From Candidatus Thorarchaeota archaeon (GTDB lineage Archaea; Asgardarchaeota; Thorarchaeia; Thorarchaeales; Thorarchaeaceae): a stretch of 64,000 nt of DNA. The stretch is from NCBI GenBank assembly GCA_029855935.1, contig JAGSHN010000012.1, forward strand, positions 128,001 through 192,000, given 5' to 3'. The notes below the pieces were generated by a model. It saw only the letters and a list, made by a program, of their open reading frames with translations, did not search any database and had not been told where the DNA came from. The stretch's first letter is position 1, and every line of letters begins with the position of its first letter. Both the position numbers and the translations under genes were made by a program. This document shows, one piece after another, positions 24,578 to 44,633 of the stretch.

Positions 24578-25756
24578 CTACTCCCCCTCTAGACTCTTCA
24601 AGTCCTTCTTCTTCTTCGAGATCTTCCTCTTCAGACTCTTGATACGCGCATCGAGTTTCGCAATCTGCTCCTCGTAGGTGTCCTTGCTCATTGCACCAGA
24701 GGCATGCCTCTCCTCCACGTGCTCTCGGAGCTGCTCCACAGACTGAATCTCCCGCTCTAACGCAGCGATGTCGGACTTGATGCGTTCTGCTTCAGCCTCT
24801 TTCTCAGTGCGGAACTCACCAGCGGGAATTATCATTCCCAGTTGTTCCTGTGTCTTCTGTGCAAAGGCTTGAAACTGAGATCGAAGTGACTCGATGTTGT
24901 TCTGGACGCCATCAATCTTCTCGGACAGGCGCTCCATCCCCTTGCTCAGGTCAAGGACTGTGTCGACGAGTCTCCGCAGCATTTTCTCGAAGTCCTTTGG
25001 TATCTGTACTCCTGCGGCCACGGCGACTGCCTGCGATCCTGGCGCAGCAGTCGTTGGTGCAGTCACCTCACTGGGCCGCACTAGGCTCTCAGTACCGCAT
25101 AGCCACCTGAAGGCGTTCAGTGCGAGTGTCCTATTTCCCTTATTCTTGAGGCCGCCACTTCGAAAGACTTCGTAGGTACCGATGCATATCACGCGTCCCT
25201 CGCCATACTCGGCGACAGCCAGCACCGGCTGACTGGCGGGATCGGCTACCGCTGATGTGAGCGCGAGGGCCATTGCCGGACTTGAGACTCGCAGAGTACA
25301 TGCTGCTGACATCACAATCTCGGCCACGTTCTGAGTGACAGGATGCGGGACTATGTCCCTGATGATTGGCATCGTCGGCATTCCGGCATTGTTGCGAGCA
25401 TCCTTCACGGCAGTGTTCTCGAAGACTATGCCGAACTCTTTCGAGACCATACTCATGTTATTCATCAGGCCGCGATCGCCTCCTGAGAGGGAGAGTAGCA
25501 TCAGTCCCCCGCCCTCCTTGACGAATCTCTTGAGTGTGTCAATCTCCGGGGGCCTCAGTTTGGAACTGTTGGGACAGCCGAATACGATTGCACTGGCCTC
25601 TTTCAGCTTTCGCGGCAGGATCATATACTCCGTATAGGGCTCGACATCAAAGCCGTTCTCGCGGAGCAGTTTTCCCAGCTGTGAGTAGGTGGAGTCGAGA
25701 CGGCCTCGCTCGTTCTGCGTCTGGTCAAAGAATATCATCCCTTTCCTGCCGCTCAA
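24578..25756 (-). CDS. GIFT/DUF4350-domain (IFT52-like) protein with C-terminal coiled coil
   Basis: IFFDQTQNE, YSQLGKLL, EIDTLKRFVKEGGGLMLL, EFGIVFENTAV, HPVT, GEGRVICIG, NRTLALNAFRWL. Confidence 0.82.
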   Translation of the reverse strand: MSGRKGMIFFDQTQNERGRLDSTYSQLGKLLRENGFDVEPYTEYMILPRKLKEASAIVFGCPNSSKLRPPEIDTLKRFVKEGGGLMLLSLSGGDRGLMNNMSMVSKEFGIVFENTAVKDARNNAGMPTMPIIRDIVPHPVTQNVAEIVMSAACTLRVSSPAMALALTSAVADPASQPVLAVAEYGEGRVICIGTYEVFRSGGLKNKGNRTLALNAFRWLCGTESLVRPSEVTAPTTAAPGSQAVAVAAGVQIPKDFEKMLRRLVDTVLDLSKGMERLSEKIDGVQNNIESLRSQFQAFAQKTQEQLGMIIPAGEFRTEKEAEAERIKSDIAALEREIQSVEQLREHVEERHASGAMSKDTYEEQIAKLDARIKSLKRKISKKKKDLKSLEGE

Positions 25757-36638: not shown

Positions 36639-36729
36639 CCAGGGGCAACGTAATACTACGCCTTAAAGGAGCCGCTACGTAGTCGGTGACTGGTCAGCAG
36701 GTGTTGGCAGTAGCGTAGAGGTTTTGAAC

Positions 36730-37509
36730 ATGAGTGATGCTTTCCAGTCCGAAGTGTATGCCTCCATTGCCACACTGGACCAGCTCAAGCGTCTCTACGA
36801 CCTCGGCGATATCGATGTCCGCTTCTTCGAGCGTGAGTCGCGAGCATTGATCAACGAGGTTCAGCGTGGTCTCGAACAGATGAAGCGTCTTGGGCTGGAT
36901 GTGCAGGCCTTTCTGACAGACTGGAGCATACACCAGCGTTTTCCGGAGGCTGCGAATCTACTCGGACTGGTCCCTGCGCAGCCGGCAGGCCCGACGTGGA
37001 CGGCGGGCCAGTGGGCATCGAAAGAGGAGTTCTATGACTACCTAGGTCTGCTTGTTCTTGATGTGGCGACCAAACATTCCTCAAAGGGTCTGATCGGTCT
37101 GGCTGAGATGATAGTCGAGGTGCTCCGCAGCCTGCCTAATCCCCAGGTGGCCAAGTTCACTGACGTCATCGAGGCCGTCAACCGCGTTTCGGGGGCTGGA
37201 CTGATTCCCGGTATCCGTACGCTGAAGGGTGGTGTCAAGGTTGTCGAGCTCCGCCCCCTTGAGCTGAGACGTGATCAGGCCGATGTCATCAATCTCGCGG
37301 CGGGCAAGGGCTACGTTTCTCTTGAAGAGGTGATGATGAACCTCGGTTGGTCCGAGGATCACGCACGACGCGTCCTGGCCAGTCTTGTAGAAGCCGGGAT
37401 AGCGGTCGTGAGCCTGAAGTATAGCACAGGTGGCAGATACTATTTCCCCGGGCTCCGTCCGATGGAACAGGATGGTGGCCCGGACGGCAGTCCTACAGTC
37501 TCAGAGTGA
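36730..37509 (+). CDS. vps22: ESCRT-II Vps22/36 (EAP30) protein with N-terminal Vps28-N-like domain
   Basis: EFYDYLGLLVLDV, GLIGLAE, PLELRRDQADVINLA, GYVSLEEV..NLGWSEDHARRVLASLV..G, YYFPGL match SNF8; N-term SEVYASIATLDQLKRLY resembles Vps28. Confidence 0.88.
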   Translation: MSDAFQSEVYASIATLDQLKRLYDLGDIDVRFFERESRALINEVQRGLEQMKRLGLDVQAFLTDWSIHQRFPEAANLLGLVPAQPAGPTWTAGQWASKEEFYDYLGLLVLDVATKHSSKGLIGLAEMIVEVLRSLPNPQVAKFTDVIEAVNRVSGAGLIPGIRTLKGGVKVVELRPLELRRDQADVINLAAGKGYVSLEEVMMNLGWSEDHARRVLASLVEAGIAVVSLKYSTGGRYYFPGLRPMEQDGGPDGSPTVSE

Positions 37510-38179
37510 TGGCATGGCGTTTCTTGTCAAGCCACTCGGCCAGTCCGTCCTCCACCAGGATTTGGAGAGCCCTGTGCAGCTCCTCCTCGGGCAGAGATGA
37601 GAAGGTTTCCTCTGGACACTGAATGACAAGGGTCTTGACATCAATCTGCCGTTCCCCTCGCCTCAGTGCCCATGCGTAGATGACCTCGGCCCACTCCTGC
37701 ACGGAGCGCCAGTATACCCTCAGCCTCCTCTTCTCCTCGTCCATCCACTCTGCGACTCCCTGCCCAACCAACCAGTCCCCAATCAGTCTGAATGCCTCAA
37801 TCTTTCCGTGAATCTCGCCGAACTCTCTCTCTATGATGAAATCGCCAAGCGAAACAACATGGGCACCCTGATGCCTCGCCCAGTCGAGCAGATACTCTCC
37901 CCACTCTGCTGTCCATCTTTCCCTTGCCGCGTCATTCTCTGGAACTGTATACATCCACACGGCGGCGCGCGAGCCACCCCATGGAGGCGGTGGTCCTCTC
38001 TCCCTCTGGGCCACGGTGACTGCCTGCGTCCGCACTCTCGCTGAATCCCTCGTCCTGTCGTGGCGTATCGCACCGGAGATTGGGAGCGGCTGACCTCTCG
38101 CTGTTTCCGTAGCTGGTACAGTGTCCCGCTGTTCCCCGGTTCGTTTCTCCCGCTGTTTCCGTTGTTCTCTCACAGCCAC
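37493..38179 (-). CDS. vps25: ESCRT-II Vps25 with charged N-terminal extension
   Basis: MYTVPENDAARERWTAEWGEYLLDW, GVAEWMD, YWRSVQEWAEVIYAW, FSSLPEEELHRALQILV..GLAE. Confidence 0.88.
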   Translation of the reverse strand: MAVREQRKQREKRTGEQRDTVPATETARGQPLPISGAIRHDRTRDSARVRTQAVTVAQRERGPPPPWGGSRAAVWMYTVPENDAARERWTAEWGEYLLDWARHQGAHVVSLGDFIIEREFGEIHGKIEAFRLIGDWLVGQGVAEWMDEEKRRLRVYWRSVQEWAEVIYAWALRRGERQIDVKTLVIQCPEETFSSLPEEELHRALQILVEDGLAEWLDKKRHAITLRL

Positions 38180-38181
38180 GG

Positions 38182-39381
38182 CTACGGTGCCTCCGCCCAG
38201 CTGACGTACCTGCTTATGTCATTGGCTCTGATGGCTGGCCTCGTCAGGTCGATGGCGTACAGAAAGTCGTCCATACTCACAGGACGCAATACGGGGGTCA
38301 GACCATCACTCGAGAGCTGTCCGGTTCGCTGAAGTTCTCTGATCGGCTCCATTGCAGCCTCCCTGCATATCACGCTGATGTCCCTCCCGCTGTAGCCCTC
38401 GGTCAGGTCGGCAAGATCGCGGAAGCTCACATCTGCAGCGACTTCGACATCACGCATATGGACCCTGAAGATCATCTCCCGGGCATTCAGGTCCGGTAGA
38501 GGCACCAGTATCCGCTTCTCGAATCTGGACAGCAAGGCAAAGTCGAGTTCCCAAGGTAGATTTGTGGCCGCTATCACTGTGACTCGTTCTTCCGGTCTGC
38601 TGTTCAGGCCCTGGAGCTCGGTGAGGAGTTGAGTCTTCAATCGACGTTCTCCTCCGACATCGTCTGAGGAGCGCAGGCTACCGATGGAGTCTATCTCGTC
38701 GACGAAGATGATGGACGGCTGTCTCTCCCGGGCCATTGCGAAGAGAAGGTGGACGAGCCGCTCTGACTCCCCCAACCATTTGCTCACAATATTGGCTGCG
38801 GATACGTTGAAGAAGGTGGCGTTGATCTCTGCGGCTACCGCCTTGGCAATCATGGTCTTTCCGCAACCAGATGGACCATAGAGCAGGATGCCCCTCCACG
38901 GCTGTCTGGCCCGTCCTCGAAATAGCCCCGGATACCTCATTGGGACAATGACTGCGTCGTTGATTGCCTGTTTCGCCATCTCAAGACCCGCCACATCTGT
39001 GAGCCGGACGTTCGGTCTCTCCGTCACCATGGTGTCCTCAAGGGCCTCCATGAGATTGCGAGTTTCTGCAGAATCGGTTGCGAGTTCAGACCGTGGTGAG
39101 GCTGGCGAGACTGGCATGTCCGACGAGCTGGTGGGCCGTGGTCTCCGGGCGCGATGTTCGACAGTCACTCCCGACAGCTGCTTGACTCGCTGTATGCACT
39201 CCTCTGCGCGCCTGTAGTAGTAGTCTCTGACAGAGGGAATGCTTGTAGACCTAGACAGCTGCACGAGGACCCTGCTGGCCTGCAGATATGCCTGACAGGC
39301 CTCTCTTGCGAGGTTCTTCTGGTCCAGCTGTATGGCACGGCCGAGCAGCTCTCTCAGACCGCGGTCTATTCTGTCTGACAT
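38182..39381 (-). CDS. vps4: Vps4 AAA+ ATPase with MIT domain
   Basis: MIT (RAIQLD..EACQAY..RAEECIQRV), PWRGILLYGPSGCGKT, SKWLGESE, FVDEID, ATNLPW, TEGYSGRDI. Confidence 0.93.
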   Translation of the reverse strand: MSDRIDRGLRELLGRAIQLDQKNLAREACQAYLQASRVLVQLSRSTSIPSVRDYYYRRAEECIQRVKQLSGVTVEHRARRPRPTSSSDMPVSPASPRSELATDSAETRNLMEALEDTMVTERPNVRLTDVAGLEMAKQAINDAVIVPMRYPGLFRGRARQPWRGILLYGPSGCGKTMIAKAVAAEINATFFNVSAANIVSKWLGESERLVHLLFAMARERQPSIIFVDEIDSIGSLRSSDDVGGERRLKTQLLTELQGLNSRPEERVTVIAATNLPWELDFALLSRFEKRILVPLPDLNAREMIFRVHMRDVEVAADVSFRDLADLTEGYSGRDISVICREAAMEPIRELQRTGQLSSDGLTPVLRPVSMDDFLYAIDLTRPAIRANDISRYVSWAEAP

Positions 39382-39464: not shown

Positions 39465-40814
39465 TCAGCCGGACGTGATCTGTGCCTGCTCTACTACGAT
39501 GGAGGGTGTGATTGCCTCAGAGGTCCTCCTCACATCCCCTCCGACGAGGATCACTCGTCTGAGCAGGTCGAGCATGTTTATTCCGATGAGAGTACTCTTC
39601 ACAGGGTACCGAATCTCTCCATTCTCGAAATAGTATCCCTCCATCACAAGTGCGCTGAGGTCGCCTGTCGTCATATTCGGTCTGTCGCCCGTGTCGCGAC
39701 AGAGTATACCGCGACCCACCTCTTCAACCAGATCCATCAGCCCGCCTCTTCCCGGTTGGACTATGAGATTACTTGGAGCAATCCTTGGAGGGCTGGAGTA
39801 GGAGGATCGGCTTGCGTGAGCGGTGTTCTCAACTTGATCCTTCTGTGCAGTGTACGAGTTGTGCAGTAGACTCTTTAGTACTCCCTGCTCAAGTAGCATT
39901 ATTCTCCTCGACGGAACCCCCTCTCCGTCGAACGGTCTTGAGCTGACCTCTCCAGGGCTCAGCGCATCATCTACTATAGTCAGGTGTTCAGAGGCTATCT
40001 GCTGTCCGAGGGCATCGGCGACGTACGACCGGCCGAACTGAACCTCCTCAGCGTTGACCGCTCCACCGAACCCGCCGCCAAGTACCGAGCCGACAGCTAT
40101 CGGCCCGAATACCACCGGCATCTTGTCGTTCTCAATTCTTCTGCCTCCGAGGTTTGCGATGACCGCAGCGGCCGCCTCTCTACCGACCTTCTCAGGGTCG
40201 AACTCGCGCAATGCTCGCGCCAGCTCATATTCAGAGCTCGATGTCTGTTCATCCTCTGTCTTGATGGTCGGAGCCGAGTAGATGTATCCGGTAGTCCCCT
40301 CGTAGTATGCCTCGATGCCCAACGAATTCACGATGCCAGCGCCCCCACGCGAGGTCCGCATCTGTGCCTCAATTGCATACTTGTAGTCTGACAAGCTCTC
40401 TTTGGTCGCGTCGACCATCCTTGTGACAATGTCGGCGGCCTCTTCGGAGCTGAGGTTGGCCATCGCCCGGTCGTAGAGTCTCTCAACAACTGGATATCCA
40501 CCGCTCGCCGAGGGGAGCGATCCAAAATCGGGGTCGGGGACAGAGACATGTGCGAGCGAGATGGCTCTCTCGACAGCGGCCCTGACGTCCTCCTCTCGGA
40601 TGGTCGTGACGTATGCAAAGCCGATTCTACTATCAATGACACACCTTATTCCACAGCCACTGTCACACCTCTCTGCAGCGCTCTTGATTGAGTTGTTCTC
40701 CACCTCAATTGTGAACGAGCGAGTGCTCGCCACAAAGGCCTCGGCCTGCTCGGCGCCTTGTCTCTCAGCGTGTCTGACCGCTATCTCAGCGATACCAAGT
40801 ATCTCTTCCCGCAC
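39465..40814 (-). CDS. tldE: TldE/PmbA
   Basis: AEQAEAF, GIRCV, RPFDGEGVP, NMTTGDLS, TPSIVV; no HExxH; GTG start next to tldD stop. Confidence 0.92.
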   Translation of the reverse strand: MREEILGIAEIAVRHAERQGAEQAEAFVASTRSFTIEVENNSIKSAAERCDSGCGIRCVIDSRIGFAYVTTIREEDVRAAVERAISLAHVSVPDPDFGSLPSASGGYPVVERLYDRAMANLSSEEAADIVTRMVDATKESLSDYKYAIEAQMRTSRGGAGIVNSLGIEAYYEGTTGYIYSAPTIKTEDEQTSSSEYELARALREFDPEKVGREAAAAVIANLGGRRIENDKMPVVFGPIAVGSVLGGGFGGAVNAEEVQFGRSYVADALGQQIASEHLTIVDDALSPGEVSSRPFDGEGVPSRRIMLLEQGVLKSLLHNSYTAQKDQVENTAHASRSSYSSPPRIAPSNLIVQPGRGGLMDLVEEVGRGILCRDTGDRPNMTTGDLSALVMEGYYFENGEIRYPVKSTLIGINMLDLLRRVILVGGDVRRTSEAITPSIVVEQAQITSG

Positions 40815-40816
40815 CT

Positions 40817-42202
40817 CTACATCCCTCCGACAGGAACTTCTGTGGCCCGTGCGTGTGGTCCACCGCTCATGTCCGGCACCCATTGACCATTCTTTCCGCA
40901 AGTACCTGCGTCAAGCTCGAAGTCCCTGCCCACCGCGTCTATCTTGGAGAGAACCTCCAGTATGAGACCTGACAGCGAAACATCCCTGACCATCTGGCCA
41001 ATCTCTCCCTTCTTGATCACGTATCCGTATTGGGCTTGAAACATGAAATGTCCCATAGAGGGGTTCGTGTAGCCGTAGTTGAATCTGCACAGGAGAAGGC
41101 CATGTCTGGTGTCCTCAATCAGCTCATCAACATCCCAGTCACCCGGCTCCATGAACGTGTTGCTCATCCTCGGGATGGGTACGTGTGCATAGGACTCAGC
41201 TCTGGCTGCGCCATTCGACTCCATCCCCAGCCTAGATGCCGTTTCGAGAGAGTGGAGTATCTCTGTCAAGATGCCGTCTTTGACAAGGATTCGCTTTCTC
41301 GTCTTTGTCCCTTCCCAGTCATATGGGTAGGATCCGCGGGCACAGTCCAGCGTGGGATCATCACTTATGTTGAGCCACTCTGGTCCGACACTCTGTCCGA
41401 GCTTGTCCTCAAGGACTGTTGTGTGCGCAGGCCAGCCATCGGCCTCACAGGCGTGTCCAAACGCCTCATGCACCATTACGCCGTTGAGGACCGGATCCAT
41501 CACGACATCGTAGACGCCTCCCCTTACAGCCACCGACGAGAGCAGGTCGACGGCGGTTCTTGCGGCTCTCTCTCCAACCGTCTGAGCGTCCTCTTCCATC
41601 ATCATCTCGAACCCGCCCTTTACTCCGACAGACCTGTAGGCACGCTGCCGATTCGCCCCCTCTCTTGCCGTTATTGACGATATGATGCGCGGGAGGGAGT
41701 TCTCAATATACACAGAGGTCCCAAGAGAATTGGCCACATAGAGCTCGCTCCACAGCTCCCCGTATACAGTCCTCGCATTGGAGACACGCTCGTCAAACTC
41801 ACGTGCCTGCATGTCAATCTGTTTGACAAACTCCATCTTCTCCTCCATCGGGACATCAGGGAAGGGGCGCCTGACGGAGATGAACTCCTTCGCCCTGAAA
41901 GTGGGGCCGTCGATCTCAAATCGTTCGGCAACAAGTGGACGGACAGCGAGAGCCAGCTTGGTAGCAGACTCGCCAACCCCTCGCATTCCCTCGGGTGTGA
42001 GTTCCGTCGTCTGAGCAAAGGCCCACGCCCCGTCGATGAACGCCCTCACTCCTGCGCCTCTGAGATGGGCGGACATCGACCTCCGAGTCACGCCATTGAC
42101 CATCTCTATAACGGTAGAGTGAGTGTTCTCAATTCTCACGTCAGCGAACGATGCTCCTGCGTCGAGTGCAGACTCTACGGCAATCTGGGCAAGGTCTTCC
42201 AT
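40817..42202 (-). CDS. tldD: TldD metalloprotease
   Basis: HEAFGHACEAD, DDPT, YDWEG, PIPRMSNT, CGKNGQ. Confidence 0.94.
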   Translation of the reverse strand: MEDLAQIAVESALDAGASFADVRIENTHSTVIEMVNGVTRRSMSAHLRGAGVRAFIDGAWAFAQTTELTPEGMRGVGESATKLALAVRPLVAERFEIDGPTFRAKEFISVRRPFPDVPMEEKMEFVKQIDMQAREFDERVSNARTVYGELWSELYVANSLGTSVYIENSLPRIISSITAREGANRQRAYRSVGVKGGFEMMMEEDAQTVGERAARTAVDLLSSVAVRGGVYDVVMDPVLNGVMVHEAFGHACEADGWPAHTTVLEDKLGQSVGPEWLNISDDPTLDCARGSYPYDWEGTKTRKRILVKDGILTEILHSLETASRLGMESNGAARAESYAHVPIPRMSNTFMEPGDWDVDELIEDTRHGLLLCRFNYGYTNPSMGHFMFQAQYGYVIKKGEIGQMVRDVSLSGLILEVLSKIDAVGRDFELDAGTCGKNGQWVPDMSGGPHARATEVPVGGM

Positions 42203-42340
42203 CAGAATCACTAGCCGGTCGCATACACCGCTCGTTATAATTGCTTTGAAGAGTGAGTGGCGGTCGGTGTAACCTTGGTGATACACAGCTCTTTCTTATC
42301 CCATCACTGAGTCGAGACCAAGGCACACGGAGGCACACAG

Positions 42341-43909
42341 TTGAGTCAAGAATCCGCGCGCGACTCTTGCCAGGTCTGCAGAAGGTCTAACGGCGTCTAC
42401 TTCTGTGAGGACTGCGGTGCTGTTCTGTGTGCTGACTGTGTTGAAACGGTCACAAGCGACTTCTACTTCTGTGGCGACTGCCACTCCCAGATCCCGTCCT
42501 CGGAGACCGACAATCATCCGCAGAAGTGTCCCGAGTGTGGCTCCGAAGAGATTCGTACGGGGCGCCGGGAAGAGGAACGATGCCCCCGGTGTCACTCGAC
42601 AAGGCTTGTGCTCGTGTCGGAAAAGCGACGTACTCTCGCTCAGGACCTGCGTCAGGCAATCAATGTTCTCCAGTACGGACACTCAAGATTTCACGAGCTC
42701 TCTAGACGTCTTACTCGGATTGTCGAGACTCTGGTGTCACTACGGATGGCAAAGTTCGTCCACTACCACTGGCTTGAGCGCCACTTGGAGGAATTGCAGG
42801 AGGAGGTCCCTGCACTCAGGAACCGAATAGTCAACCGGGCCGAGATGGTGGCGCGCCAGATGGCTGCGGAAACATCAGGGATAATGCACGACCCTCTATG
42901 GACGGCTGACCAGTTCCCGTTCATATCAGGTGTGGTGAACAGGCTGCGCGAGCTTGGACGGGAGTACAAGGAGCGAGTCGATGAGACCCTCGCTGGTGCA
43001 TTCCGTCGTCTGGAGGAGATCAGCAAGACGATTGAGGGTCTCGAGTATTTCCGACGAGCCTTTGTGGCCTTTTCTAGCCTCGTCCCCCTTGAGGTCAATG
43101 AGCTGCCCGTCTGTGCACTGCCGGATATCCGCCTCACGGGGTCCGACTTTCTCAAGCACGACAAAGCCGCAGGAACGCTCTATCTGACCGACCGGCGAAT
43201 GGTCTTCATTGCCACCACTGGGACTATTCGAAAGAGGGAGTCCGTGGTCTTTGACTTTCCTCTGCCGTATCTGTCGGGGATTGAGGAGGACGGCAGACGG
43301 AAGAAGCGTCTTGTTCTGAGGATGCAACAAGGCGACATCAGGATAGTCTGTCCTGAGGGAACACGACGTGTGATGAGCGACTACATGGAGATTGCTCGCA
43401 GCTTTGCCAAGTATGCACAGACCAATCTTCAGCGTACGAGGCAGCTGCAGCGGTTCAGTTGTGCGCCTGATGAGGTGAGGATCCGTATATTGGATCTGAT
43501 TGATGACCTGCTCTCTCGAGAACGACGCAGAGCGATTGCCATGAGCGGTACGGGGGCGTACACTCGCTCTCCTCCTCCGGTCCACAGCTGGGGCTATCCG
43601 GAGACCTCGAATAGTCCTAGGGCCACATTCTCGGGGTCGCCATTCAGTCCGCAGGCCACAAGTCCAGATAGTCGCTACAGCTTGGACGGCTCGTATGTGA
43701 GAACGGCTGCGACTTCGCCCCCGCGCGGTGTCTACTCGCAACACTATGGCGACGGGGACATGACTGCACTACTCAATCACGAGATCCAAGAGACAATACG
43801 TGCACTCAGACGGGGTCGACTTCCTCCTGACGAGTTTGTTCGGCGTTATCGTGACCTGATGCGGAGTTCATTTGAGATGGAGCGACGCTTCTACGAAAGG
43901 GTTCGGTAG
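42341..43909 (+). CDS. Multidomain protein: B-box-like and Zn-ribbon fingers, coiled coil, GRAM/GLUE-like PH domain, Pro/Ser-rich linker, steadiness-box-like C-terminus
   Basis: CQVC..FCEDCGAVLCADC plus three more CxxC; AAGTLYLTDRRMVF; IRALRRGRLPPDEFVRRYRDL. Confidence 0.75.
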   Translation: MSQESARDSCQVCRRSNGVYFCEDCGAVLCADCVETVTSDFYFCGDCHSQIPSSETDNHPQKCPECGSEEIRTGRREEERCPRCHSTRLVLVSEKRRTLAQDLRQAINVLQYGHSRFHELSRRLTRIVETLVSLRMAKFVHYHWLERHLEELQEEVPALRNRIVNRAEMVARQMAAETSGIMHDPLWTADQFPFISGVVNRLRELGREYKERVDETLAGAFRRLEEISKTIEGLEYFRRAFVAFSSLVPLEVNELPVCALPDIRLTGSDFLKHDKAAGTLYLTDRRMVFIATTGTIRKRESVVFDFPLPYLSGIEEDGRRKKRLVLRMQQGDIRIVCPEGTRRVMSDYMEIARSFAKYAQTNLQRTRQLQRFSCAPDEVRIRILDLIDDLLSRERRRAIAMSGTGAYTRSPPPVHSWGYPETSNSPRATFSGSPFSPQATSPDSRYSLDGSYVRTAATSPPRGVYSQHYGDGDMTALLNHEIQETIRALRRGRLPPDEFVRRYRDLMRSSFEMERRFYERVR

Positions 43910-44000: not shown

Positions 44001-44633
44001 CTAGAGGCCAAGCCTCCTCTCAAGCGCCTGAATCTCTTCTGCCAGTCTGTCGGGTGGTGCCTTGGTGGATGGAGTGGTCCCCCTACGGCCGCCACTCTCC
44101 ACAACCTCGGAATCTATCTCCGCCATCACGTCTGCCAGCTCCTCAGGAGCAATTCTGCCATCCGTGGCTCCGTGGAGGGTCTCCTCGAAGATGCCGTTCT
44201 CAATCTCGAACTGCTCGAGTCTTCGTGCCACCTCGTCGAGATTCTGAATGACCCTCTTGGCACTGATCTCTTCTCCGAGGATACCAAAGATTGCTGCCAC
44301 CCTCTCCATGCCTATGTTGACTCTTGCTGTTATCCTCGCTCGCTTGATGTAGGACGCAATACGTAGAAGAGAGAACCGGACACGCTCGATCTTGAGAATA
44401 TCACGATGTGTCCGCAGGACCTCCCCGGCATAGAGTATGCAGGCCTCGTTCTGCCCGTTTCTGCGAGCTGTCACTGCCCGCCTCTTGGCATCGGCAGCCA
44501 GTTTCTCCAGATGGTTGCGCTCACGTTCGAGCTCTCTGGCCATCACCTGAAGACCGCTGACAATCTCCGTGACATCTGGCTTTTTTCTGCCCCATATGGC
44601 GGCCCGCTTCAACAGACGCAATAGTTTCACCAC
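44001..44633 (-). CDS. ESCRT-III, Vps2/24/46 (CHMP1-like) class
   Basis: LQVMARELER, ARRNGQNEACILYAGEVLR, EELADVMAEI, C-term MIM1-like helix LAEEIQALERRL. Confidence 0.87.
   Translation of the reverse strand: MVKLLRLLKRAAIWGRKKPDVTEIVSGLQVMARELERERNHLEKLAADAKRRAVTARRNGQNEACILYAGEVLRTHRDILKIERVRFSLLRIASYIKRARITARVNIGMERVAAIFGILGEEISAKRVIQNLDEVARRLEQFEIENGIFEETLHGATDGRIAPEELADVMAEIDSEVVESGGRRGTTPSTKAPPDRLAEEIQALERRLGL

Follow-up and report, generated by a model that had tools for sequence, protein, structure and literature searches.

The locus described here raises the question of which protein could stand upstream of ESCRT-III in a thorarchaeon, and whether such a protein was put together from eukaryote-type subunits. 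ESCRT-I and ESCRT-II connect the ESCRT-III scission machine with cargo and membrane, and no known relatives of the eukaryotes are closer than the Asgard archaea. The window (the whole stretch of DNA that was analysed, 64,000 nucleotides) holds genes for ESCRT-II (Vps22/Vps25), ESCRT-III and Vps4, all within 8 kb, together with a gene for a 522-aa protein that a sequence-only reading had called a Vps36-Vps23 chimera. The genes concerned are:

36724..37509, + strand: Vps22-like ESCRT-II subunit (EAP30, E 1.1e-9) with an N-terminal Vps28N-like hairpin (aa ~5-70)
37493..38179, - strand: Vps25-like ESCRT-II subunit (Pfam ESCRT-II, E 2.3e-14)
38182..39381, - strand: Vps4 ATPase with MIT (E 2.8e-6), AAA (E 5.9e-40) and Vps4_C (E 9.8e-5) domains
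42341..43909, + strand: whole gene for the 522-aa protein, TTG start; Thorarchaeota ortholog of the Asgard Znr_CC_PH_SB family
44001..44633, - strand: convergent neighbour, ESCRT-III (Snf7 family), CHMP3/CHMP2A-like (Pfam Snf7, E 6e-9; PDB CHMP3, E 2e-4)

The claimed open reading frame at 42341-43909, with the parts described for it, is real. Its product has about 98 close clusters at 39–59% identity, the N-terminus aligns with about 98 homolog clusters, and an AlphaFold2 model of the full chain reaches a pLDDT of 81.6. An exhaustive profile search with the family retrieved 119 representatives, and domain order and domain lengths are kept across about as many (~119). The protein is the only family match in its own genome. 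A whole-protein Pfam scan gave sub-threshold matches only and no PH family; the protein's own domain scores all lie below the Pfam cut-offs, and the domain assignments given below rest on family profiles and models.

The protein belongs, as the Thorarchaeota ortholog, to Znr_CC_PH_SB (asCOG cog.011556; the name also appears as Znr_PH_CC_SB), a published family restricted to Asgard archaea. Neither the family nor its architecture (zinc ribbons, coiled coil, PH domain and steadiness box) nor its inferred role is new: Makarova et al. (2024, mBio 15:e00335-24, PMC10936438) proposed that it is a component of ESCRT-I whose PH domain binds membranes. Of 201 Asgard genomes sampled, 175 carry Znr_CC_PH_SB, in most cases as a single copy, and 57 of 58 genera are represented. 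A Loki-type homolog (P0115) matches the Thorarchaeota profile at E 6.7e-46. The gene order around P0115 (peptidase C69, L35Ae, the family gene, MetE, ESCRT-III) equals that of the published Lokiarchaeum GC14_75 entry of cog.011556, and so ties the Thorarchaeota protein indirectly to a listed member.

The gene converges on the Snf7-family gene at 44001..44633 (- strand), as had been stated from the sequence. This convergence on an ESCRT-III gene is kept in all four relatives inspected, namely two Thorarchaeota, one distant genome and one Loki-type genome; the two genes are directly adjacent in three of them, and one gene lies between them in the Loki-type genome. The adaptor role that had been suggested would fit this conserved ESCRT neighbourhood.

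Zinc module, helical bundle and PH domain

Six segments can be told apart in the 522-aa protein:

42362..42613, + strand: zinc module, aa 8-91, with 12 Cys in six CxxC pairs
42614..43081, + strand: predicted helical bundle, aa 92-247 (~155 aa), four helices (92-108, 111-136, 143-177, 189-247)
43088..43426, + strand: predicted PH-fold domain, aa 250-362, GRAM/GLUE-like (Foldseek, VIA-align, PDB profile search, Pfam per member, hhalign)
43427..43549, + strand: two helices after the PH domain, aa 363-403 (AlphaFold2 model; conserved in Thorarchaeota relatives)
43556..43747, + strand: disordered Pro/Ser/Tyr-rich linker, aa 406-469 (~65 aa; pLDDT < 50)
43751..43903, + strand: helical hairpin, aa 471-521, Vps23-type steadiness box (helices 471-490 and 496-521 in the AlphaFold2 model)

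The CxxC pairs of the zinc module (10/13, 22/25, 30/33, 44/47, 63/66 and 81/84) contain 12 Cys, all of them invariant in 37 diverse family members, and the model places pair-bearing short strands at aa 20-91. Six such pairs therefore imply three putative Zn(Cys)4 sites. For the B-box-like finger that had been proposed here, the zf-B_box match (E 1e-4) scores 22.7 bits, below the Pfam cut-off of 24.1. DZR matches at E 0.007 and an ANCHR-like B-box, again sub-threshold, at E 8.6e-4. Across the family, zf-B_box matches 16/36 members (best E 7.9e-6) and DZR 20/36. In Foldseek the zinc module weakly resembles the N-terminal zinc domain of MCM (E 0.15). Some relatives carry the annotation 'B-box zinc finger protein'.

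The zinc module is followed in the model by helices at aa 92-247. The length of this region is fixed across the family (157–163 aa), and R135, which lies in an L..LR motif of the bundle, is invariant family-wide. The CxxC pairs had been reported to precede a long coiled coil in a TRIM-like layout. The pairs are there; the helices, however, are modelled as an intramolecular antiparallel bundle and not as a TRIM-type coiled coil (pLDDT 89.9 for a model of aa 1-250). The TRIM-like layout is unsupported as well, as aa 1-250 gave no TRIM-like match and no TRIM chain is among the structural matches listed for it. With the same model, Foldseek found no match at E <= 0.001, and VIA-align returned generic bundles only, with designed helical bundles on top (Z 9.7), in rows that barely covered the zinc module. 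The ALIX V domain (Z 9.2), HD-PTP (9.1) and BAR domains (8.5) fall below the noise level for helical proteins and were rejected as specific folds.

For aa 250-362 the predicted fold is clearly PH, with a beta-sandwich (aa 256-336) and a helix (aa 339-360). All seven matches of a PDB profile search with this domain were PH domains. Foldseek found the Lam6 PH-like domain (E 1.4e-4) and EAP45 GLUE (E 1.9e-4); VIA-align found MTMR2 (Z 12.3), Lam6 (Z 11.9) and VPS36 GLUE (Z 11.2, 20% identity), and also the bacterial PH structure 3hsa (Z 10.9) and the protein-binding PH-like folds of CCM2 PTB (11.2), the Exo84 Ral-binding domain (11.1) and GLUE with ubiquitin (11.2). Basic residues are conserved in the family at R286, R297, K298, R319, K322, R323 and R353. 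PH, GRAM and GLUE domains bind proteins as well as membranes.

The start of this domain had been likened to VPS36 GLUE, and that alignment could be reproduced: HMMER aligned profile positions 3-70 to positions 11-72 of mouse VPS36 GLUE (2dx5_A, E 0.31). An hhalign comparison with a vertebrate GLUE alignment of only five sequences gave P 1e-4, a probability of 58% and 31% identity over 61 columns. A specific grouping with GLUE/GRAM was not supported, however. More members match Pfam bPH_3, and at better E (25/37, best E 7.4e-9), than match Vps36_ESCRT-II (15/37, best E 3.2e-6) or GRAM (12/37). When the domain was set against generic bacterial PH domains, bacterial structures tied in sequence and structure searches alike; DUF1696 structures appeared in the PDB profile search at E 0.019–0.032. 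The protein's own PH domain has no bPH_3 match in Pfam and no PH-family match better than E 0.22, and bPH_3 (PF14470) comparators sought in 21 relative genomes gave no match at E 1e-5. The best eukaryotic matches of the domain are PH-GRAM and VPS36 GLUE, but prokaryotic bPH families match equally well, so that a specifically GLUE-type origin does not follow from them.

The C-terminal hairpin and its predicted partner

The P/S/Y-rich linker announced by the sequence-only reading is found at aa 406-469; it is disordered in the model, and across the family it is poorly aligned and variable in length. The resemblance of the C-terminus to the TSG101 steadiness box was likewise borne out. A profile of the hairpin matched yeast Vps23 in the PDB at E 8.5e-6 (2f66_A), with the whole 47-position profile covered, followed by 2p22_A (E 5.3e-5), 2caz_A (E 1.2e-4), TSG101 (6vme_B, E 0.084) and VPS37B (E 0.52). 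Pfam Vps23_core was found in 27 of 36 family members (best E 1.3e-6). The 522-aa protein itself scores E 0.0035 and 17.7 bits against a cut-off of 26.8, and its hairpin is the best Vps23_core match in its own genome. At the level of sequence profiles, the hairpin is homologous to the Vps23-type steadiness box. SHOCT and CdvA match one of the 36 members each; SHOCT was rejected as the identity of the hairpin on this count (1/36 against 27/36 for Vps23_core). Within its own genome the steadiness-box profile also matches hairpins with a G-x-I-S/T-x-x-E-Y/F pattern in unrelated proteins (E 1e-4 to 2e-3); it matches neither the N-terminal hairpin of Vps22 nor the tail of the IFT52-like protein at 24578-25756.

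A candidate partner for the steadiness box lies at the N-terminus of the Vps22-like subunit. In an alignment of this region, Pfam VPS28 was found in 18 of 21 members; the subunit's own sequence matches model positions 2-66 at E 0.0027, and its N-terminus matches the yeast Vps28 N-terminal domain at E 0.12–0.25. A complex prediction of Vps22 aa 1-85 with the steadiness box (aa 474-522) reached an ipSAE of 0.84, against 0.01 for the best of three controls. At least 93% of contacts are shared between the runs, and the partner has a pLDDT of at least 85. The calibration mark is reached by 58/80 solved complexes and 2/110 mismatched pairs, counts that are only rough here because the analysis used its own alignments. 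The predicted interface involves hairpin residues around 499-511 and residues 12-21 of the partner. The prediction supports a pairing between the steadiness box and the Vps28N-like hairpin on Vps22, although the score may reflect likeness to solved complexes, since yeast Vps23:Vps28 (2f66, 2caz, 2p22) and the human head (6vme) are among these. Yeast two-hybrid data give hints that a steadiness-box protein binds Vps28 in Loki- and Thorarchaeota (Hatano et al. 2022, PMC9192718). A search for a free Vps28 elsewhere in the genome returned one weak, sub-cut-off match (E 0.0013), probably spurious; the protein concerned (444 aa) is a highly charged coiled coil encoded on the same contig.

Proposed role and alternatives

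Thorarchaeota seemingly lack ubiquitin (Hatano et al. 2022, PMC9192718). In this 97.3%-complete genome, ubiquitin (PF00240) gave no match. UEV (PF05743) gave none either, a weak negative, as the same search matched in none of the control genomes. With no ubiquitin or UEV gene found, recruitment in this genome would therefore be independent of ubiquitin.

The reading that we favour, and regard as fairly probable, is that the 522-aa protein, as the Znr_CC_PH_SB ortholog, is an ESCRT-I-like upstream adaptor that works as follows. We infer that its PH domain binds membrane and would hold the protein there via a conserved basic surface. The three-zinc module and the helical bundle may recognise a site, a cargo or a partner. 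For the steadiness-box hairpin on its linker tether, the prediction is a pairing with the Vps28N-like hairpin that the Vps22-like subunit carries, and this pairing would recruit ESCRT-II (Vps22/Vps25), followed by ESCRT-III and Vps4.

Within the same ESCRT-linked family, the PH domain could instead be a protein-binding module for cargo, ESCRT-III or another partner, with membrane contact made via another part or partner. GLUE, which binds ubiquitin and Vps28, would be the model for such a domain. Protein-binding domains match at nearly the same Z as the membrane-associated ones, and a direct link to ESCRT-III could be read from the convergent position next to one ESCRT-III gene, which is conserved. 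The conserved basic positions and the top matches (MTMR2 PH-GRAM, Lam6 and GLUE), which are lipid- or membrane-associated domains, speak against it. The results agree with either reading, and we consider this one rather unlikely. A different doubt concerns the C-terminus: the hairpin could be a generic SHOCT/CdvA-like self-association motif that does not dock on ESCRT-II, and the protein would then act on ESCRT-III or in division in a different way, comparable to CdvA of Crenarchaeota. The steadiness box and the CdvA helical hairpin are reported to resemble each other (Makarova et al., PMC10936438), single family members match SHOCT and CdvA, and the profile hits hairpins in unrelated proteins of the genome. 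The predominance of Vps23_core in the family, the yeast Vps23 alignment that spans the whole profile and a complex prediction that passes with controls near 0 all speak against this, and we hold it to be decidedly unlikely.

A reading that would remove the protein from the ESCRT system altogether makes it a TRIM-like B-box/coiled-coil protein of regulatory or ubiquitin-ligase type, with its ESCRT adjacency incidental. The sub-threshold zf-B_box and ANCHR-like B-box matches and the annotation of some relatives point that way. But Pfam finds no RING domain in the 522-aa protein, the genome has no ubiquitin match, the structural matches listed include no TRIM coiled coil, the helices are modelled as an intramolecular bundle, and the ESCRT neighbourhood is conserved across Asgard classes, so that we regard this reading as highly improbable.

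Nearly all Asgard archaea have the Znr_CC_PH_SB architecture, mostly in a single copy, and it therefore looks ancestral, rather than like a fusion of eukaryote-type subunits. With a Vps23-type head hairpin and a PH domain on one near-universal Asgard protein, the upstream wiring differs from the eukaryotic one, and in Thorarchaeota it appears to do without ubiquitin. One may go further and picture Znr_CC_PH_SB as the ancestral single-chain upstream ESCRT adaptor, which in ubiquitin-less Thorarchaeota docks on ESCRT-II via the steadiness box and the Vps28N-like hairpin of Vps22, and whose PH domain was the source of Vps36 GLUE, moved from an ESCRT-I-like to an ESCRT-II subunit during eukaryogenesis; this extension is speculative and, in our judgement, unlikely. 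The value of the present analysis lies in one more genome that confirms the family and in a testable prediction that the partner of the steadiness box is the Vps28N-like hairpin on Vps22.

Comparison with known systems

Between the 522-aa protein and Znr_CC_PH_SB (cog.011556) there is no essential difference. Both have three zinc ribbons, a helical region, a PH domain and a C-terminal steadiness box, and they share the restriction to Asgard archaea, the ESCRT neighbourhood and the inferred role. The Thorarchaeota form is compact (522 aa, against at least 650 aa in Loki-type members) because its linker is shorter. Most Thorarchaeota orthologs carry a C-terminal Trp tail, whereas the 522-aa protein does not; reading through past the stop codon revealed none.

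To call the protein a Vps36-Vps23 chimera is misleading. Its likeness to Vps23/TSG101 lies in the C-terminal steadiness-box hairpin and in the predicted pairing with a Vps28N-type hairpin. Vps23/TSG101 has a UEV domain, whereas our protein has no UEV match in Pfam and carries zinc fingers and a PH domain instead. The stalk of Vps23/TSG101 adjoins the steadiness box; here the model puts a disordered linker before the hairpin. The partner hairpin, too, is fused to Vps22 and not borne by a free Vps28. With Vps36/EAP45 GLUE the protein shares the PH fold, in which the first four strands align, and a place in the upstream ESCRT machinery. However, it lacks the winged-helix (EAP30) domains and the NZF insertion of Vps36/EAP45 (EAP30 has no Pfam match in it, and the tandem winged-helix fold is absent from the model), its PH domain sits on an ESCRT-I-like subunit, and the family PH is at least as similar to prokaryotic bPH_3/bPH_1 as to Vps36 GLUE.

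The PH-GRAM domains of MTMR2 and Lam6/GRAMD head the structural matches for aa 243-360 (Z 11.9–12.3, 12–20% identity), but they occur in unrelated multidomain eukaryotic proteins, and their Z is tied with that of many other PH domains. CdvA of the Crenarchaeota/TACK is a candidate functional analogue, as a membrane-associated upstream recruiter of archaeal ESCRT-III; it differs in having a PRC barrel, no zinc module and no PH domain, and in binding the CdvB winged helix directly.

Gene neighbourhood and distribution

The open reading frame at 42341..43909 (+) is real: it encodes 522 aa from a TTG start, and its N-terminus aligned with homologs starting at the same place. Its host genome (2.97 Mb, archaeal, 97.3% complete) carries the window on contig 21, and the closest homologs of the product bear Candidatus Thorarchaeota annotation. 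The family, architecture and proposed role of this protein are already known. The architecture was published as Znr_CC_PH_SB or Znr_PH_CC_SB (cog.011556), an Asgard-specific, likely ancestral family and likely ESCRT-I component, with a PH domain that is expected, in analogy to Vps36, to associate with membranes (Makarova et al. 2024, PMC10936438). The gene lies in the following order:

36724..37509 (+), Vps22-like EAP30 protein
37493..38179 (-), Vps25-like protein
38182..39381 (-), Vps4
39465..42286 (-), TldD/PmbA pair
42341..43909 (+), Znr_CC_PH_SB gene
44001..44633 (-), Snf7-family gene, CHMP3/CHMP2A-like, convergent with the Znr_CC_PH_SB gene
after 44001..44633, ArgRS and TFB genes

The Snf7-family neighbour faces the gene under study, so the convergence on an ESCRT-III gene described in the sequence-only reading holds. 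Two Thorarchaeota relatives show the order TldD/PmbA, Znr_CC_PH_SB gene, convergent Snf7, Vps4, Vps25, EAP30. Their Vps4-Vps25-Vps22 block is just downstream of Snf7, whereas in the window it lies across the TldD/PmbA pair, a difference that points to local rearrangement within the ESCRT cluster. Upstream of the gene, the TldD/PmbA pair is conserved as a neighbour in each of the three (3/3). In a distant relative the gene converges with two Snf7 genes; in a Loki-type one MetE separates it from Snf7, an order that matches the published Lokiarchaeum GC14_75 entry of cog.011556 (PMC10936438). Taken as its longest ORF, the Vps25-like gene has ~75 additional N-terminal residues rich in Arg/Gln and shares 17 nt with the 3' end of the Vps22-like gene; since relatives are ~240 aa long, an extension is present, though the gene's true start in the window is uncertain.

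A profile of aa 1-250 was run against a sample of 201 Asgard genomes with completeness of 80% or more. Matches came from 175 of these genomes and from 57 of 58 genera, mostly one copy per genome; among high-quality genomes the count was 77 of 88. One family of small genomes gave no match (0/4).

Domain architecture and conservation

In a full-length AlphaFold2 model derived from 36 Thorarchaeota homologs (mean pLDDT 81.6) these elements are seen:

aa 20-91, short strands bearing CxxC pairs
aa 92-247, four helices
aa 256-360, beta-sandwich with capping helix
aa 363-403, two more helices
aa 406-469, Pro/Ser/Tyr-rich disordered stretch
aa 471-521, helical hairpin

A separate model of aa 1-250 from 37 diverse relatives (pLDDT 89.9, pTM 0.75) has the same elements. 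An exhaustive profile search recovered 119 family representatives at E <= 0.001. Full-length representatives keep six CxxC pairs within the first ~130 residues, and a G-x-I-S...Y/F hairpin is recognisable at the C-terminus of most. Lengths are nearly constant for the zinc module (~95 aa), the helical region (157–163 aa) and the hairpin (47 aa), and mostly 112–117 aa for the PH domain; the linker is the sole length-variable part. Twelve cysteines and R135 of the helical region are invariant in 37 diverse members. R135 (window 42743-42745), in an L..LR motif of the bundle, is the only such residue besides the cysteines and is a candidate functional site. Most Thorarchaeota orthologs run ~7 aa longer and end in a conserved Trp (last columns of the alignment with Thorarchaeota homologs; window 43880-43909). 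The window protein lacks this tail, as does the relative closest to it, and reading through past the window's stop codon yields no Trp.

The proposed TRIM-like layout is not supported. For the B-box-like finger, the window protein scored 22.7 bits against zf-B_box, under the 24.1 cut-off, and among 36 members scanned singly DZR was matched by 20 and zf-B_box by 16. Foldseek gave no match to the aa 1-250 model at E <= 0.001; its only zinc-domain row was the MCM N-terminal zinc domain (E 0.15), and the zinc fold was barely covered. The helical region resembled only generic bundles (Z <= 9.7, beneath what is quoted as noise for helical proteins).

The PH domain is real, and its subtype is not settled between GRAM, GLUE and bPH. 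Foldseek matched the full model to Lam6 PH-like (E 1.4e-4), human EAP45/VPS36 GLUE (E 1.9e-4, 21% identity) and mouse GLUE (E 4.3e-4, 22% identity), with MTMR2 PH-GRAM also among the matches. The five VIA-align values fall within ~1.5 Z units, so subtypes are inseparable from Z alone:

VIA-align comparisons of the PH domain
MTMR2: Z 12.3, rmsd 3.0 Å, 108 aligned, 18% identity
Lam6: Z 11.9, rmsd 2.7 Å, 105 aligned, 12% identity
VPS36 GLUE: Z 11.2, rmsd 3.5 Å, 106 aligned, 20% identity
BBS5: Z 11.0, rmsd 2.3 Å, 99 aligned, 13% identity
bacterial PH 3hsa: Z 10.9, rmsd 2.6 Å, 102 aligned, 12% identity

All seven matches (E < 10) of a PH-only profile to PDB sequences were PH domains: two bacterial DUF1696 structures (E 0.019, 0.032), four Vps36 chains (E 0.079 to 1.5) and one GRAM protein. 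The alignments to Vps36 begin at the very point where the sequence-only reading had placed the likeness to the Vps36 GLUE start. Scanned per member, the region matched Pfam bPH_3 in 25/37 (best E 7.4e-9), Vps36_ESCRT-II in 15/37 (best E 3.2e-6) and GRAM in 12/37 (best E 7.4e-6), while hhalign against five vertebrate GLUE sequences gave a probability of 58% (P 1e-4, 61 columns, 31% identity). Taken together, these results place the domain within the GRAM/GLUE/bPH section of the PH superfamily. The PH fold and its likeness to VPS36 GLUE and GRAM stand, but a specifically GLUE-type domain is not shown, as bPH_3 was matched by more members than Vps36_ESCRT-II; grouping with bacterial PH families as opposed to GLUE/GRAM gave a mixed outcome.

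The C-terminal steadiness box

That the C-terminus is a steadiness box of the Vps23 type was borne out. A 47-position hairpin profile from 36 diverse members, searched against all PDB sequences, found yeast Vps23 (2f66_A, E 8.5e-6, entire profile covered; 2p22_A, E 5.3e-5; 2caz_A, E 1.2e-4), human TSG101 (E 0.084) and VPS37B (E 0.52). Pfam Vps23_core matched 27 of the 36 members scanned singly (best E 1.3e-6); SHOCT and CdvA were matched by one each. For the window protein, Vps23_core gave E 0.099 in a whole-protein scan and E 0.0035, under the cut-off, with the hairpin alone, and this gene is the best Vps23_core match in its genome.

The profile also picked up short 'G-E/T-I-S/T-x-x-E-Y/F' hairpins in three other proteins of the same genome (G000; C, contig; L, locus) at E 1e-4 to 2e-3, which look SHOCT-like:

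G000 C8:72365-72700 (L009 866-1201), 111-aa protein
G000 C27:22391-22993 (L010 892-1494), 200-aa protein, two hairpin copies
G000 C28:175211-178225 (L011 212-3226) (-), 1004-aa multi-pass membrane protein

The IFT52-like GIFT protein (window 24578-25756) had no match at E <= 10 in this genome search. Cyanobacterial ApcE, the phycobilisome core-membrane linker (PDB 9k9w, 8wql, 7eyd), was matched over a short repeated motif of 15–20 residues around 'L-L-R-N-G-S-I-S-V-R-E-F-V-R-R', probably a chance likeness of a common helix-turn motif.

A predicted partner in ESCRT-II

The sole genome-wide Pfam VPS28 match is a highly charged 444-aa protein (L001 1351-2685; G000 C21:327383-328717; E 0.0013, under the cut-off, positions 17-185). 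It is probably a coiled coil and the match likely spurious, though it is the only free-Vps28 candidate in the genome. The 97.3%-complete genome also gave no ubiquitin match, and Thorarchaeota seemingly lack ubiquitin (Hatano et al. 2022, PMC9192718); a UEV search was blank here and likewise in all its control genomes.

A conserved hairpin forms the N-terminus of the Vps22-like protein. Pfam VPS28 (its N-terminal positions 2-66) matches this hairpin in 18 out of 21 relatives and, at E 0.0027, in the window's Vps22-like copy; yeast Vps28 N-terminal chains are matched at E 0.12–0.25. Complex prediction that paired the steadiness box (aa 474-522) with Vps22-like aa 1-85 scored 0.84, against 0.01 for the best of three controls, with contact agreement of at least 93% between runs and partner pLDDT of at least 85. 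Of 80 solved complexes 58 pass the mark for this score, as do 2 of 110 mismatched pairs; both counts are only rough here because our own alignments were used. Since Vps23:Vps28 head structures are already solved, the passing score may reflect likeness and not binding.

The sequence-only reading is confirmed as an observation and supported in part as an interpretation. In the favoured mechanism the protein would be a membrane-bound adaptor whose steadiness box is predicted to dock on ESCRT-II by pairing with the Vps28N-like hairpin of Vps22; the homology of the steadiness-box hairpin is established, the docking itself is a prediction, and both the membrane attachment and the part played by the zinc module are inferred. 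Such a partner fits the fusion of Asgard Vps22 proteins to a steadiness box, noted by Makarova et al. (2024, PMC10936438), and a hint from yeast two-hybrid data on Loki- and Thorarchaeota (Hatano et al. 2022, PMC9192718).
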